Shown piece after piece: positions 139 through 35,001 of a stretch of DNA of 64,000 nucleotides. Source of the stretch: an uncultured Francisellaceae bacterium. GTDB taxonomy: Bacteria; Pseudomonadota; Gammaproteobacteria; UBA6186; Azoamicaceae. A model generated the notes under the pieces. That model made no database searches. It saw only the letters and a list, made by a program, of their open reading frames with translations, and was not told the origin of the DNA. The translations under genes and the position numbers were made by a program. Every line of letters begins with the position of its first letter. Position 1 is the stretch's first letter. Location of the stretch: contig CAMFJH010000002.1 in NCBI GenBank assembly GCA_945956915.1, positions 33,842-97,841 on the forward strand. Reading direction: 5' to 3'.

Positions 139-263
139 GCAAATGCTTATCTGGCCTGTATTTTTTTATGAGTAATTCAGAAAATAAAGTGCAGATATCT
201 GTATATATAAACAGTTAAAATTCTTGTAGTAACTGCTCAGGTGCCCGCTCGATACCCCCAGAT

Positions 264-483
264 AAAAATCCCCCCGCTAGCTTCGCTATCGACCCCCTTT
301 TGAAAAAGTGGGTAAAGAGCATTGATGTCCGCTACGCTACCATCAATGAGTTTTTTGTTTTTTTACATAAATAAAGTTAAAAACATCAAGAAAAGGTCAT
401 TTATGTAAGCGAAGCGCAACATAAATGTACATTACCCACTTTTTCAAAAGGGGGTCGCTGCCAAGGGCAGCGGGGGGATTTTT
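264..483. repeat. Inverted pair of a ~51-nt double-hairpin module bounding a 117-nt interior (MITE/REP-like element, copy 1)
   Basis: 264-315 and 433-483 are reverse complements, except for a 15-nt internal hairpin that differs between the arms. The same module recurs at 27071-27415. Confidence 0.75.
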
Positions 484-580
484 CCCATTAGAGCATTGCC
501 CTGTTTTAACATAAAACTATTAGTTTACAAAGAGTTCAGGAGCTATATTCTGTTATCTACCTGGGCTGTTACCTCTTGTA

Positions 581-24795: not shown

Positions 24796-25266
24796 ATGAT
24801 CATTTCTATGATAGCTGCGATGACAGAAGAGGGAGTGATTGGGCGAGATCAAAAATTGCCATGGCAAATACCGGAAGAATTGCAATATTTTAGAGCAATG
24901 ACCCTAAATAAACCGATAGTAATGGGCTCAAGAACTTTTGAATCCATGGGCAGCAGGCCTTTGCCACATCGACCGAATATCATTCTAACACGCGATCAAG
25001 AATTTGTATCGGCAACCTGTACTGTGTTACATTCAATAGAAGCTGTGCTAGACACCCTAAAAGGTTATGAGGAAATTATGATTATCGGAGGTGCGAGTGT
25101 TTATAAGCAATTTCTACCCCTGGCTTCTCGTTTGTATATCACGATTATTCATGAAGCTTATAAAGGTGATACCTATTTTCCAAGTGTGGATTGGAATGAT
25201 TGGGCCTTAAAAAACGAAGATTCAAGACTTTTATTTACGACTAAAGTATATGAAAGGAGAATATGA
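24796..25266 (+). CDS. folA: Dihydrofolate reductase
   Basis: IGRDQKLPWQIPEELQYF...GSRTFESMG...IIGGASVYKQFL. Confidence 0.92.
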   Translation: MIISMIAAMTEEGVIGRDQKLPWQIPEELQYFRAMTLNKPIVMGSRTFESMGSRPLPHRPNIILTRDQEFVSATCTVLHSIEAVLDTLKGYEEIMIIGGASVYKQFLPLASRLYITIIHEAYKGDTYFPSVDWNDWALKNEDSRLLFTTKVYERRI

Positions 25267-26405
25267 GTATGTTATTTCGTGCAGTACTTGAGAAATTAAT
25301 AGCTCTTTTTAACAGCTATGTACCTAGAGATAATGATGTGGGTAAAGCGAAAGCCGAAGAACGAAAGAAGATAGTAGATTTTTTATCAAAACTTACAGCC
25401 AGATGCACACCCTTATCCTGTGTAGACATAAGTACATGTATAAACTTTTTGTCAGCTGAAGTAGGTTTTTTGAAAGACATTAGAAAAAAATTTAAAGAAC
25501 AAAATTCTGCAGAAGATGAATTACCTGCAGCAACTTTAGATGGGTTTACCATGGCATCCATCAAAGTCTTAACGAATCTGTTTGATTATTGGGCGCAATC
25601 AGTATTATCTATTCGACATCAAAAAGAGAGTTTAGCCAAAAACTCACTTCCCGAAAATGCAAGCAGTATTTTGATAAAATCTTTGCAAAATGTCGAGGAA
25701 CAGGAACCCTTAGGGTTTTTACAAGTTCAATTAATTTTATTTATGATTGATGTAGATATACGTTTTGAATCTGATAAAGCATCTAAATCTAAGGTTGATA
25801 GGTTTTACAGTGGTTTTTCAAGCGTCCTTAATCTTACAAATTACAATCATACCGCAGAAGATAATTTAAAACCTGTAGTATATAAGCATTTAGTGAAAAT
25901 GAAAACACTATTGCCAACATCAAAAGGTGATGACGCTAAGTATATGAAATTTATTGATGATGCATTGATCGAAGCTTTAGGGTATGAAGCACAACAAAGT
26001 GGAGGTAAGCTAACACATTTGAAAGAATATTTAAATACAGTTAGTATAAGAATAGCTGATTTTCCATCATTAAAGAAATACAGAGAGAACGTAGTTAACA
26101 TGTGTGATGAGGTTAGAAGATGTAGCGAAGCTTTTGCTAAGGAGTTGGCAAATCAAGAGAAACCAGAAGAATCTAAGAGCGCTTCTATATCTGAAGAGTC
26201 AACAAAAACTTTAGAACCTGAAGTCACGTCTAGAAGCTCCTTATCTGAAACGTATGCGTCAGTGGTTGCACGTGGATCGACGAGCTCATCATATTCTCCA
26301 TCGGCTTCGCCATTTCAAATGATTCCCCACCCTACTCGAAATCCTTCAGTACTGGTATTAGAAGCAGAAACGACGGTCCATATATCAAACAGTAAACTTA
26401 GGTGA
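25263..26405 (+). CDS. Hypothetical 380-aa protein with a Ser/Thr-rich C-terminus, translationally coupled to folA and the DUF374 gene
   Basis: 4-nt overlaps at both ends (25263-25266 and 26402-26405). No recognisable domain. Confidence 0.6.
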   Translation: MSMLFRAVLEKLIALFNSYVPRDNDVGKAKAEERKKIVDFLSKLTARCTPLSCVDISTCINFLSAEVGFLKDIRKKFKEQNSAEDELPAATLDGFTMASIKVLTNLFDYWAQSVLSIRHQKESLAKNSLPENASSILIKSLQNVEEQEPLGFLQVQLILFMIDVDIRFESDKASKSKVDRFYSGFSSVLNLTNYNHTAEDNLKPVVYKHLVKMKTLLPTSKGDDAKYMKFIDDALIEALGYEAQQSGGKLTHLKEYLNTVSIRIADFPSLKKYRENVVNMCDEVRRCSEAFAKELANQEKPEESKSASISEESTKTLEPEVTSRSSLSETYASVVARGSTSSSYSPSASPFQMIPHPTRNPSVLVLEAETTVHISNSKLR

Positions 26406-27037
26406 AAAAGAGGATGAATAAATATCGATTGCTTGGCATTTTGGCTTATTATCTTACCTATTTATTATATAAAACCTTAAGAGTTGAGATAAAATTTGAT
26501 CCAGATTACGATGTGGCAACACAATATCTGGGCGCTTTTTGGCATGGTAAACAATTTTTACCGGTATTTGCCATGTCTAAGCATCAAACTAAACGTGCAG
26601 CATTAGTCAGTGCTTCTAAAGATGGAGAAATTTTAACAGCTTGGCTGGAAAAAATTGGCTATACCGTTATTCGCGGTTCTTCTAGACATCACAATACTCG
26701 AGCCTTAGCACAAATGATCAAAGCACTAAAAGCTGGATATGGTATAGGATACGGAATTGATGGACCCATAGGGCCTATCTATAAAGTCAAACCGGGAATG
26801 ACACACATGGCCAAAAAGTTGGGTTTAGAGATCTTACCTATGGGCACGGCTTTTAGCCGTAAATGGGTAATCCACAAAGCTTGGGATAAATATGAAATTC
26901 CTAAGCCTTTTTCTAAAGCCATTCTCTATATAGGCAAACCGCTGAAAATAGAAAAAGATGCAGATTTAGAACACAGCAATTTATTATTAGAAGAAAAAAT
27001 TCACGAAGCAGAAGCTAAAGCCGCTGCTTATTTGTAA
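26402..27037 (+). CDS. DUF374-family (lysophospholipid acyltransferase-like) protein, usually linked to Kdo transferase genes
   Basis: FWHGKQFLP...SASKDGEILTAWLEKIGYTVIRGSS...IDGPIGPIYKVKPG. Confidence 0.7.
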   Translation: MKKRMNKYRLLGILAYYLTYLLYKTLRVEIKFDPDYDVATQYLGAFWHGKQFLPVFAMSKHQTKRAALVSASKDGEILTAWLEKIGYTVIRGSSRHHNTRALAQMIKALKAGYGIGYGIDGPIGPIYKVKPGMTHMAKKLGLEILPMGTAFSRKWVIHKAWDKYEIPKPFSKAILYIGKPLKIEKDADLEHSNLLLEEKIHEAEAKAAAYL

Positions 27038-27070
27038 AAAAATGATAGTTTTTTAGAGCTTTATTTCCAT

Positions 27071-27415
27071 AAAATCCCCCCGGTGCTGTGCACCGACCCC
27101 CTTTTTCAAAGTGGGTTGTCACTCCGCATTGTGCTCTTCATGAACATTAATGACAAAATACTTTTAAGAATTTGTAATGAATGATTGATTTTTTTGTATC
27201 GCAACAACAATATAATCTAGGAAGTAAATAATCTCCTGTAATTTTTTATCTAATATAAGGGCACCATTGTTATATTTTAAGCTTTGGTTATTGAGCTAAA
27301 AAAGAAATTTACAGCTTCTTTAAAATATATGGTCTTTAACATTCATTAGAAGTATAATTCGGAGTGACAACCCACTTTGAAAAAGGGGGTCGGTGCACGG
27401 CACCGGGGGGATTTT
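27071..27415. repeat. Inverted pair of the ~55-nt double-hairpin module bounding a 233-nt interior (MITE/REP-like element, copy 2)
   Basis: 27071-27126 and 27360-27415 are reverse complements apart from one loop base. They share the C6 / hairpin / GACCCCC / A-T core / GTGGG architecture with 264-483. Confidence 0.75.
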
Positions 27416-27418
27416 AAC

Positions 27419-27763
27419 TTAAAGACGATTCTGATGTTTTTTATGCTCTGTTTGCGTATGATGTGCTTGATTCGGTTGTGTAGGTGAAACTGTGCTTGTA
27501 GTTGTGGTTTTAGTTTGGATGGGTGCTGCATTAACCGTATTCGTTTTTGATGTTGTAGTATTAGCTTTCTTTTTTTGCCAATCTTCTATTTTTTCTTTGA
27601 CATGATCAGCGCCTGCTTTGATTTTGGGTATAACAACATTGATTGTGAAATCTTTAGTGGTATGAAAAGCCTTTAGTAATTTTTCTTTAACAATGGGAGC
27701 GTATTCTTTTGTTTTATCGCTAATGTTGGTTGCGATGGTTTGCATTTTTTCTTTAGCGCTCAT
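27419..27763 (-). CDS. Hypothetical hydrophilic 114-aa protein (amphipathic N-terminal half, Thr-rich basic tail)
   Basis: ORF whose stop lies 4 nt from the palindromic module. Lies downstream on the same strand as the 72-aa ORF. Confidence 0.5.
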   Translation of the reverse strand: MSAKEKMQTIATNISDKTKEYAPIVKEKLLKAFHTTKDFTINVVIPKIKAGADHVKEKIEDWQKKKANTTTSKTNTVNAAPIQTKTTTTSTVSPTQPNQAHHTQTEHKKHQNRL

Positions 27764-33395: not shown

Positions 33396-35001
33396 TTCAA
33401 CTTTGAAGTAAATTTAGCCAACAGGATGACTTTATTCTCCCGATGTTGCACACTAAAATGATTAAATTTTTTCAAGCAGCCTTCTTTTTGATGGCTTTTG
33501 GGTCTTTTATAATGATGGGGAATCGAGTTCTTCTCTTTTGTTTTGCCCCTTTAAGCCGACCTGGTGGTTTAACTCGGGGTTTTGGTGCATAGGCAGGTGT
33601 TCCAATTTCGGCAGTTATTTGAGTAAAAGACTTTTGAACTTGCCTTGCAGATTTTACTCTCTCATTATTTTTCATTTCGGGCAAATATTTTTCCCATGGG
33701 GTTGGTAAATTGCTTGCCAATTTGCGTGCCATATAAAGTTGTGCATAAGCCAAAGATGAGAGCTTCCAACAGGATTCTTCATGAAGTGTATCGGGTGTTT
33801 GAAATTTATCCATGAGCAATCTCGTTTTACCAAATTTAAAAAAATGCTCTATATCGTAACGTCGCTTATACGATTGCCAAATCTGCATTAGGTTTAACGA
33901 TTGTCTTTGTTTTCCAGAAACCATAAGCCACATAGCTCGTTTATAAACTGGGTTATTGTTTTCATCAGTGATGGTGATTCTAATCAGCCTAAATGGATAT
34001 TTATTTAAGTGTATGTTATTTTTCTGCCGCATTAATAGTTCATCCCAACATTGAATATGTGCTGTAAATTGTTTGGCTTTTCGAGTTTTAAAAATTGCAG
34101 ATAGGGATTCTGCCGGGGTGCACCAGGTGGCATTATCTTTTAAATTAAATTCTTTTCCATACCATAATTCATGGCCTCGTTCACGTCTACCCGTTATTTT
34201 TAGTTTTTTTGGACTGGCTTTATGATTGAAAATACGATTACTTTTCAAGCGTGCAATTAAAATTAAGTTTGTATGATTTTGCATACCATCAATAAATTTT
34301 GGACTGCTATAGGCGGTATCTCCTAAAATGACTGTTAATTCAGAACCAAAAAATGGCATCGCTGTGTTTACTTGTTGTATACCAACAGCAATCCCATTAG
34401 TATGGGTTGCCACACGTTGAGTAGATAACGGTAAGATCCAAGGCACTTGTTCTTCATTTAAATTTTGCTCTGGCAAAAAACCCATAATACTGTATTGGTG
34501 ACCAACCGTAATGGGTTTATTCCCAGGAATGACATTCGGAGCATGAATGATACCTTTATCTGCAAGTGTTTTAGAATATTTGCGAGGTGCTGCAGTACAA
34601 TCTAATACCATTAAACGAAAAGGTTGTCTTTCTGTGATAGAAGAGCAATGCTTAATTAAACAATGTTCTAAGCGCATGCTTTGTTGCGGATCTTTGGCAA
34701 AATGAGTGATAGCATCTCGGATACTTCCATATCTACGCCTGAAAATAGGATTTAAAGATAATTGTACAACTGAAGTAGCATGCGTATTACCAGATAAGAC
34801 ATCTACAAGATCCATAGTGGAATCTGCTCGAAATGAAAAACAATTAAAAATTTGGTCGCGAAATTGTTTAAATTTGTTTACAATGGCTACTTGCATAAGA
34901 GGTGTCCTTCACTTTGGTAAGAGACTGTGACATTACACCTTCTTATGCAATTAATCAAATTATTATATCAGTTGAATTGCTAAATTCACTTCAAAGTTGA
35001 A
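33396..35001 (-). mobile_element. IS4-family insertion sequence (1606 bp) with 23-bp terminal inverted repeats
   Basis: IR TTCAACTTTGAAGT(A/G)AATTTAGC at 33396-33418 and, reverse-complemented, at 34979-35001. Encodes a 474-aa DDE transposase. Confidence 0.85.
33472..34896 (-). CDS. IS4-family DDE transposase
   Basis: VLDCTA (D1), ILGDTAYSS (D2), and YKRRYDIEHFFKFGK, which is the Y-2-R-3-E-6-K (YREK) signature. Confidence 0.85.
   Translation of the reverse strand: MQVAIVNKFKQFRDQIFNCFSFRADSTMDLVDVLSGNTHATSVVQLSLNPIFRRRYGSIRDAITHFAKDPQQSMRLEHCLIKHCSSITERQPFRLMVLDCTAAPRKYSKTLADKGIIHAPNVIPGNKPITVGHQYSIMGFLPEQNLNEEQVPWILPLSTQRVATHTNGIAVGIQQVNTAMPFFGSELTVILGDTAYSSPKFIDGMQNHTNLILIARLKSNRIFNHKASPKKLKITGRRERGHELWYGKEFNLKDNATWCTPAESLSAIFKTRKAKQFTAHIQCWDELLMRQKNNIHLNKYPFRLIRITITDENNNPVYKRAMWLMVSGKQRQSLNLMQIWQSYKRRYDIEHFFKFGKTRLLMDKFQTPDTLHEESCWKLSSLAYAQLYMARKLASNLPTPWEKYLPEMKNNERVKSARQVQKSFTQITAEIGTPAYAPKPRVKPPGRLKGAKQKRRTRFPIIIKDPKAIKKKAA

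Follow-up and report, generated by a model that had tools for sequence, protein, structure and literature searches.

The 64-kb window described here (64,000 nucleotides of contig CAMFJH010000002.1 from an uncultured Francisellaceae bacterium, in whose numbering all positions are given unless a locus is named) contains a 345-nt element, at 27071-27415, that is built of two inverted hairpin modules and has no gene inside. The reading we favour, at roughly even confidence, is that this is a gene-less copy of a widespread repeat, on whose folded module a DUF559 nuclease acts and whose copies are spread by repair. It draws on the anatomy of the element, its family, its insertion between two genes and the association of the same module with a gene. 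A unit of ~450 bp with the layout [hairpin 2 - G6ATTT] - DUF559 gene - [AAATC6 - hairpin 2] likewise has this module as its terminal inverted repeat.

The left arm of the element (27071-27126) reads AAAATCCCCCC / GGTGC-TGT-GCACC / G / ACCCCCTTTTTCAAAGTGGGT / TGTCACTCCG, and the right arm (27360-27415) is its reverse complement with a single difference, T versus C in the hairpin-1 loop, exactly as an earlier reading of the sequence alone had described. That sequence-only reading had also assigned the element 56-nt arms and a 233-nt interior; the arms are inverted as claimed, but the inverted repeat runs to 108 nt at 85% complementarity (27070-27177 versus 27309-27416), which leaves a unique interior of only ~131 nt. 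Each arm folds into two adjacent DNA hairpins while the C6/G6 run stays unpaired (two-state hairpin folding), and the fold of the entire element has an energy of -93.8 kcal/mol (z = -13.7). Either strand of an element holds only three C-tracts or three G-tracts, as was noted when i-motif and G-quadruplex structures were considered. The parts of the element, and the second copy in the window, are as follows.

27071-27081, plus strand: left head AAAATCCCCCC, a pyrimidine run and candidate third strand (sequence and pattern scan; unpaired in the fold)
27082-27094, plus strand: left hairpin 1, GGTGC-TGT-GCACC, variable, linking the head to hairpin 2 (fold, family covariation)
27096-27116, plus strand: left hairpin 2, ACCCCC-TTTTTCAAA-GTGGGT, with conserved C-arm, A/T loop and G-arm and one C.T mismatch (sequence, family consensus, covariation, fold)
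27117-27177, plus strand: left sub-terminal arm extension, an imperfect inverted repeat with 27309-27359 (inverted-repeat search, alignment)
27178-27308, no strand: unique A/T-rich centre (no protein or Rfam match)
27309-27359, minus strand: right sub-terminal arm extension (inverted-repeat search)
27370-27390, minus strand: right hairpin 2, top strand ACCCAC-TTTGAAAAA-GGGGGT (sequence, covariance model, fold)
27392-27404, minus strand: right hairpin 1, top strand GGTGC-ACG-GCACC (sequence, fold)
27405-27415, minus strand: right head, top strand GGGGGGATTTT, a purine run that could lie on the hairpin-2 G-arm (sequence, fold; mirror rule at family level)
262-485, no strand: copy 1, an element of the same type with modules at 262-318 (plus) and 429-485 (minus), other hairpin-1 stems, a hairpin-2 loop that is flipped and, in each arm, a third hairpin

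The pattern AAATCCCCCC-N8-30-GACCCCC has four matches in the window (266 and 27072 on the plus strand, 481 and 27414 on the minus strand), forming two inverted pairs, and none in 100 shuffles. A covariance model of the module likewise gives just four full matches in the 64 kb (53-66 bits, E 1e-13 to 1e-17). Alignment bears out the claim that the interiors of copies 1 and 2 are unrelated. The A/T core had been called inverted between the copies, and the orientations are indeed opposite; it is copy 1 that is flipped, the loop TTTTTCAAA of copy 2 being the family consensus. The third hairpins of copy 1, at 320-348 and 398-427, have stems that differ by a compensated change (CATTGATG/CATCAATG versus CATTTATG/CATAAATG), and their loop is similar to a CGCTTCGC motif within elements of a Coxiellaceae metagenome-assembled genome (MAG).

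Further copies exist well beyond the window. An exact-pattern scan with AAATCCCCCC-N8-30-GACCCCCTTTT, covering a single genome for each species, returned at least 113 loci from about 50 genomes. Among the matches listed, the hosts are mostly Gammaproteobacteria (Lysobacteraceae, Coxiellaceae and Francisellaceae MAGs, Cellvibrionaceae and further MAGs) with some Beta- or 'Delta'-proteobacteria and two Nostoc, and the module consensus is AAATCCCCCC-G[variable hairpin]C-GACCCCCTTTTTCAAAGGGGGT. The covariance model identifies 196 modules in these pattern-selected loci (746 kb). They occur as solos (common), as '+-' and '-+' pairs and in arrays, direct pairs being rare. There are 73 cases of '+ then -' neighbours, at inner distances from -20 (hairpin 2 shared) to about 270 nt, and 31 of '- then +', mostly 14-56 nt apart; certain partner modules have no hairpin 1 at all (C6-TG-C6). 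Element interiors are unrelated from genome to genome. The conserved unit is the ~55-nt module and not the whole element, which agrees with the earlier suggestion of a conserved module of ~50 nt, recurring as it does with unrelated interiors in the ~50 genomes among the matches listed. In Lysobacteraceae the interiors are tandem repeats with units of about 15, 18 and 47 nt (L085 2080-2200, L014 3200-3300, L046 3280-3420), and orthologous elements vary in length between species from 164 to 248 nt.

When the open reading frames (ORFs) of the 113 pattern-selected loci were clustered all-against-all, only syntenic housekeeping genes recurred besides a single cluster. The small protein of this cluster, whose genes abut modules, is Pfam DUF559 (E 1e-35), and the genes lie in four unrelated genomes, every one of them next to modules. 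DUF559 is the YcjD family, with a Vsr-like PD-(D/E)XK fold (PMC1189080); the closest solved structure, PDB 3HRL, has no function assigned. As an independent sample, 80 metagenome loci were picked by DUF559 protein similarity alone. In the 265 kb of these loci the covariance model finds 253 modules, and a fuzzy pattern finds 220 versus 3 in shuffled sequence, most heads beginning with AAAT and then a C-run. The commonest layout is '- gene +'. The '-' module (...CCCCCCTTTGAAAAAGGGGGG-NN-GGGGGGATTT) ends no more than 80 nt upstream of the start codon in 58 of 77 loci, with a median of about 14 nt, and the '+' module (AAATCCCCCC-NN-CCCCCCTTTTTCAAAGGGGGG) starts at or just past the stop codon in 66 of 75, the TAA stop often being part of TAAATCCCCCC. 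Modules flank the gene on both sides in 49 of 72 loci and on neither side in 2. The DUF559 proteins are just 56-69% identical to the query and the flanking modules are nonetheless conserved, which argues that the modules are a selected part of the unit.

In JABDBA, the one genome that allows hairpin 1 to be compared, this hairpin is nearly identical between the modules flanking the gene and the dispersed copies, and the genome also has solos and gene-less '-+' pairs with a conserved 21-nt centre. At a Lysobacter locus the short-form module beside the DUF559 gene matches modules dispersed in related genomes. The association recurs with other module sequences. The DUF559 gene of a Pseudanabaena plasmid (47% identity; L206 150-910) is bracketed by modules of like architecture and different sequence, in the order CCCCCC-AGAATT-GGGGGG-CTA-GGGGGG, gene, CCCCCC-TAG-CCCCCC-AATTCT-GGGGGG, while that of a Photobacterium chromid (L207 700-1088) is followed by three related modules with the loop TTGAAAA versus AGAATT in Pseudanabaena. 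The G-run-TTA-G-run half of the Photobacterium module (GGGGAGGG-TTA-GGGTGGGG) is closely like the E. coli repeat BoxC. Separately, the short '-' modules lying ~10-50 nt upstream of DUF559 starts (L116-L195) contain TTGAAA (the hairpin-2 loop), 17 nt and TTTAAA (the head), an arrangement resembling a sigma-70 promoter that points into the gene; in modules with hairpin 1 the spacing would be misplaced. Literature searches on the module sequence, DUF559 and YcjD found no description of a link between repeat and gene.

Hairpin 1 was left free by the search pattern and is variable, and it is under a pairing constraint: the covariance check shows that 82.5% of its own cells are paired (87.8% for the structure as a whole), that 9 of 10 pairs change on both sides (168 such cells), that none of 500 shuffles reaches the observed score, and that sliding the partners lowers pairing to 29-56%. 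G-T pairs are nearly absent, which indicates that the constraint acts on DNA folding on either strand and not on RNA. This bears on whether the element might be a resident regulatory or structural feature and not mobile, such as a terminator acting in both directions, a hairpin between convergent genes that stabilises transcripts, or a structured RNA. Its placement exactly between two convergent genes, its very strong fold (the z-score given above) and the promoter-like TTGAAA-17 nt-TTTAAA of the short modules would suit such a role. We nevertheless think it improbable, since the near-absence of G-U pairs in hairpin 1 and the equal use of both strands are contrary to an RNA-only structure, a search of the element found no T-tract terminator, and relatives manage without the element. 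An Rfam scan of the window gave nothing at the gathering score and chance-level matches alone at E up to 10, so no Rfam family accounts for it, and PIT/TMECO repeats, which resemble the module as set out below, had no promoter or terminator activity in the earlier tests, as these are cited in PMC4666352.

The relation of the head to hairpin 2 can be read from modules that carry T in their C-runs. There the head is the mirror image of the 5' arm of hairpin 2, neither a direct nor an inverted copy; four arm/head variants were seen (CTCCCC/CCCCTC, CCTCCC/CCCTCC, CCCTCC/CCTCCC and CCCCCT/TCCCCC), and among 33 informative hairpins 23 have a mirror head, none a direct-repeat head and 10 no head. Opposite an arm T the head carries T or A (L050, L207), a tolerance that fits G.G-C, A.A-T and T.A-T triplets. 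No copying process yields mirror repeats, and a mirror pattern is what isomorphic base triplets demand; the triplets would be G.G-C with A.A-T/T.A-T if the G-rich strand folds, or C+.G-C with T.A-T if the C-rich strand does. An alternative-hairpin idea, in which the G-arm pairs with either C-run, needs a direct-repeat head and is ruled out by the count of 0 direct versus 23 mirror heads. What the sequence-only reading had overlooked is the mirror repeat of the BoxC/PIT triplex type, built by the C-run together with hairpin 2. At the family level the modules show the three consecutive blocks of that triplex motif, the third mirroring the second. The window blocks are homopolymers (C6/C5/G5), so the rule holds trivially there, with one mismatch in hairpin 2.

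E. coli BoxC, which is the same as PIT and TMECO, is an intrastrand-triplex repeat with the consensus CCCTCNCCC-N3-6-GGGNGAGGG-N3-GGGNGAGGG that forms a triplex in vitro by circular dichroism and nuclear magnetic resonance (Holder et al. 2015, PMC4666352); Hoyne et al. (2000), as cited, also describe such repeats in E. coli and other Proteobacteria. TMECO has 23 copies in K-12 and 3610 in 262 proteobacterial genomes, is intergenic in either orientation, at times forms inverted pairs of unlike types and marks variable loci (PMC4666352). According to the same authors transposases or integrases near it were 'never found', and they ascribe the local variability to replication and repair; their paper makes no mention of ycjD or any endonuclease (PMC4666352). 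The family of AAATC6 modules shares with it the succession of C-rich arm, loop, G-rich arm, short linker and mirrored second G-rich block, the strictly intergenic position in either orientation, often as inverted pairs and frequently of two unlike types, and the many copies per genome, patchy among relatives and with no transposase nearby. It differs in having no sequence similarity to the TMECO consensus, in blocks of 5-6 nt versus 9, in the conserved AAAT that flanks the head and, in the window, in a loop 1 that is a 9-nt A/T stretch extending the stem and a loop 2 of about 13-15 nt that is a covarying hairpin, versus 3 nt. The window module, AAATC6-[13-nt hairpin]-GAC5-T5CA3-GTGGG, accordingly falls outside that consensus with its 9-nt blocks and short loops. 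Since the search of Holder et al. was limited to loops of 1-6 nt (PMC4666352), it probably missed the AAATC6 family.

E. coli provides a further case. In the K-12 ycjD locus (NC_000913.3, 1351150-1351790; L196) the last codons and stop of ycjD fall within a C-arm/G-arm hairpin, CCCTCTCCC-TGAAA-GAGCGAGGG, and are followed by a duplicated 3' fragment of the gene. Some 170 nt downstream there is a type-A TMECO, CCCTCGCCC-CTCT-GGGAGAGGG-TTA-GGGTGAGGG. Given the 23 copies in 4.6 Mb, the probability that one falls at most 200 nt from the only DUF559 gene of K-12 by chance is about 0.002. The locus gave no match to the AAATC6 covariance model. It is carried by 3377 of 5426 complete E. coli genomes, and ycjD occurs in phylogroups A, B1 and C, with eefRABCD instead in B2 and others (PMC12817139). 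TMECO counts range from 29 in strain 55989 to 1 in IHE3034 (Holder et al., PMC4666352). In 60 sampled complete genomes a megablast search with a BoxC-containing query matches 3-6 places where ycjD is present and mostly 1, with 3 in O157, where it is not.

These observations have to be set against the possibility that the DUF559 gene is a passenger, either a free-standing homing-type endonuclease gene or a small gene that landed or was retained between repeats. In that case no dedicated enzyme would be involved, and the repeats themselves would arise and spread when the host replicates and repairs non-B DNA, by fold-back synthesis, slippage or gene conversion. A nested '- - gene + +' arrangement does look like a cassette inserted into the centre of an existing '-+' pair, solo modules are common, E. 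coli strains without ycjD retain 1-4 detectable BoxC copies, and Holder et al. report TMECO sites free of mobility genes and put their local variability down to replication and repair (PMC4666352). What speaks for the opposite is the fixed register, with the head abutting start and stop codons in most of the 72-77 loci, the conservation of module DNA while the proteins diverged to 56-69% identity, and the change of the Pseudanabaena module sequence along with its distant protein; taken together, these features favour the view that the modules belong functionally to the gene unit. We rate the passenger explanation as rather unlikely.

We propose instead a nuclease-driven spread of the folded module. 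The building block is the ~55-nt module: an AAAT-C6 head comes first, hairpin 1 is variable and may be absent, and hairpin 2 is conserved, with its C-arm, A/T loop and G-arm. A pair of these modules in inverted orientation encloses A/T-rich filler. On the G-rich strand, hairpin 2 would take up the G6 head, folded back on the G-arm as third strand with hairpin 1 as linker, to give an intrastrand purine-motif triplex like that formed in vitro by E. coli BoxC/PIT/TMECO. The DUF559 (YcjD-family, Vsr-like PD-(D/E)XK) nuclease would recognise and nick or cut this folded module, and break repair copying from another copy, or fold-back synthesis, would spread and homogenise the modules. Three steps are thus inferred: that the AAATC6 variant forms a triplex, that the nuclease acts on the module, and how the copies spread.

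Several points weigh against this proposal. No DUF559 gene was found in the 64-kb window, and the window elements have their heads outward ('+-') where the gene unit has them toward the gene ('- gene +'), so that a simple deletion in the gene unit would not produce the window element. The association is also silent on whether the nuclease drives the repeats or just homes into them, and the trend between ycjD and BoxC copy number, in the expected direction, is confounded by phylogeny. A triplex in the window variant would have just 5-6 triplets, one of them over a mismatch, and Holder et al. detected none for their motif in duplex DNA or in vivo (PMC4666352). Finally, insertion polymorphism between close strains was not found, which leaves the exact ends and target undefined.

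The insertion itself is clear from the neighbouring genes, which are the following.

26402-27037, plus strand: DUF374 gene, left neighbour (Pfam PF04028, E 7e-20)
27419-27763, minus strand: convergent gene for a small hydrophilic protein of 114 amino acids, right neighbour (orthologues of 75-87 amino acids in L201-L204)

The element starts 33 nt past the DUF374 stop codon (27037) and fills the gap between the two genes as had been reported, ending, however, 3 nt and not 4 nt short of the stop codon of the convergent gene (27419-27421). For comparison we used four relatives (L201-L204) whose DUF374 protein is 74-76% identical and which share a common gene order: Lgt, ThyA, DHFR, DUF374, the convergent small MSAKEKM protein, zf-CHCC and heptosyltransferases. 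In all four the DUF374 and convergent stops overlap or abut (gap -6 to +1 nt versus 381 nt in the window), and the 6.6 kb shown of their loci contains no modules. Because the relatives have no intergenic DNA at this junction, the 345-nt element has been inserted and its interior is not old intergenic DNA. The whole element is an insertion relative to these relatives; modules and interior came in together, or stepwise, in the lineage of the window. The alternative that the interior is ordinary intergenic sequence kept in relatives without modules was looked into, and those relatives lack the interior as well. What went in between the convergent genes, whose stop codons once touched, was the 345-nt unit or a precursor of it. 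At ~75% amino-acid identity the relatives are too diverged for a base-exact junction. The contig of a sister metagenome assembly (L200, 1-53) breaks within the element, as is expected for a repeat, and has the head GGGGGGCTTTT in place of GGGGGGATTTT, which is one strain difference. The DUF374 protein is also 60% identical to its homologue in a Francisellaceae MAG. A leftover of the ancestral gene end may survive in the 33 nt on the left side of the element. The convergent protein has 114 amino acids versus 75-87 in the relatives, and its extra T/S/Q/K-rich C-terminal tail (27419-27560) directly adjoins the element.

An inserted element of 345 nt with no coding capacity and terminal inverted repeats of 56-108 nt invites comparison with a classical miniature inverted-repeat transposable element (MITE), that is, a deletion derivative of a DDE-transposase insertion sequence (IS) with hairpin-bearing long terminal inverted repeats, mobilised in trans. 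Bacterial MITEs such as the Correia elements and Coxiella QMITE1/2 (PMC5896051) share the size range (100-400 bp), the long terminal inverted repeats, the long-hairpin fold and the position beside gene ends, and an IS with a DDE_5 transposase is present in the window. We consider this origin quite improbable. The flanks of ~60 paired elements, in which a target-site duplication was sought, showed none and merely prolong the palindrome with no direct repeats; the modules occur solo and in both pair orientations; and the interiors are unrelated even within one genome while the ends are conserved across orders and phyla. The IS of the window (33396-35001), which encodes a 474-amino-acid DDE_5-type transposase (33472-34896, minus strand), was tried as a partner and rejected, its 23-bp terminal inverted repeats TTCAACTTTGAAGTAAATTTAGC being unrelated to the modules. 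Module pairs 1.4-2.6 kb apart (L006, L036, L080, L110) were likewise tried as the ends of an autonomous element, and their interiors are ordinary genes (permeases, aminopeptidase etc.) with no transposase. No partner IS between the same ends was found, and the DUF559 unit shares the modules in the opposite orientation. The lack of a target duplication and of a partner IS, together with the conserved ends and unrelated interiors, sets the window element apart from bacterial MITEs such as QMITE1/2 as these are described (PMC5896051). In L110 (3177-5839), inverted modules 2.6 kb apart bracket genes for proteins of 340 and 382 amino acids, the latter YhcG/PDDEXK-like by eye; the pair sits between rluD-like and mpg-like genes and may be a small defence-type island bounded by modules.

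The sequence-only reading had likened the architecture to repetitive extragenic palindromes (REPs), bacterial interspersed mosaic elements (BIMEs) or attC sites more than to a classical MITE, and this interpretation is partly supported. The REP/BIME side of it agrees with the solos, both pair orientations, arrays and lack of a visible target-site duplication. As in REP/BIME/REPIN systems the unit is a short structured module found extragenically as solos, inverted doublets and clusters, and as with REPs and their REP-associated tyrosine transposases (RAYTs) orthologous loci in different species have a small gene between inverted copies of the repeat type that belongs to that genome. The module consensus differs in having no GTAG-type head, the 5' mark of the 20-40-nt imperfect palindromes of REPs, and the DNA signal of AAATC6 modules includes a mirror repeat. 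The RAYT/TnpA-REP partner that had been expected did not appear: tblastn in ~1.1 Mb of loci plus the window, with one YafM query sequence that may be inexact, found none. The gene in the 'RAYT position' is the DUF559 nuclease gene, which encodes a PD-(D/E)XK (Vsr-like) protein where a RAYT is an HUH Y1 enzyme. The attC analogy found no support. The module has no R''/L''-L'/R' core site (GTTRRRY), modules are mostly inverted pairs with no same-orientation cassette array, and no integrase occurs among the recurrent neighbour genes in the ORF clustering of the pattern-selected loci.

Free-standing homing endonuclease genes with a Vsr-like fold also exist (the EDxHD family, I-Bth0305I), and classical homing has a unique target that lies within a gene or intron. 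The likeness to the present system lies in a small Vsr-like PD-(D/E)XK nuclease gene inside specific repeated DNA, and by analogy the repeated context around the DUF559 gene could act as target and homology arms, as in homing. The difference is that the modules are dispersed and intergenic, not one site in a gene or intron. On our proposal the resulting behaviour would be like that of REP/REPIN-RAYT or of an intragenomic homing endonuclease.

One further feature of the window lies between DHFR and DUF374. A 380-amino-acid ORF with no Pfam match (25263-26405) is absent from L203 and L204, where DHFR abuts DUF374, and L201 has a 358-amino-acid ORF; it looks like a lineage-specific gene insertion, possibly effector-like.

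The window element has led to a sister repeat family across many Gammaproteobacteria, whose modules consistently bracket DUF559 genes, a pattern that recurs in cyanobacteria, Photobacterium and E. coli, where the module sequences are different. The structural kind, a BoxC/PIT-type triplex repeat, is already known; the sequence family, the linker hairpin, the insertion evidence and above all the DUF559 bracketing appear to be undescribed in the searchable literature. BoxC/PIT/TMECO repeats, known for ~30 years, form triplexes in vitro and mark unstable loci; to our knowledge they have no assigned origin, function or enzyme, and DUF559 (E. coli YcjD; PDB 3HRL) is a very common nuclease-fold protein for which we know of no role and no cleavage data. 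We tentatively suggest, with more doubt than assurance, that DUF559/YcjD nucleases and G/C-run triplex-hairpin modules together may form a previously unrecognised class of selfish or domesticated elements, in which recognition of an intrastrand triplex or hairpin fold by the Vsr-like nuclease would create, spread or maintain hundreds of intergenic copies. Such a class would take in E. coli BoxC/TMECO, the proteobacterial AAATC6 family and the cyanobacterial variants, and would be the structural and enzymatic counterpart of the REPIN-RAYT partnership. For annotation, the family explains one class of intergenic insertion, which folds strongly, breaks assemblies and is absent from Rfam. If the link is functional, it would provide a substrate for DUF559 and a mechanism for triplex repeats, both directly testable in E. 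coli K-12.

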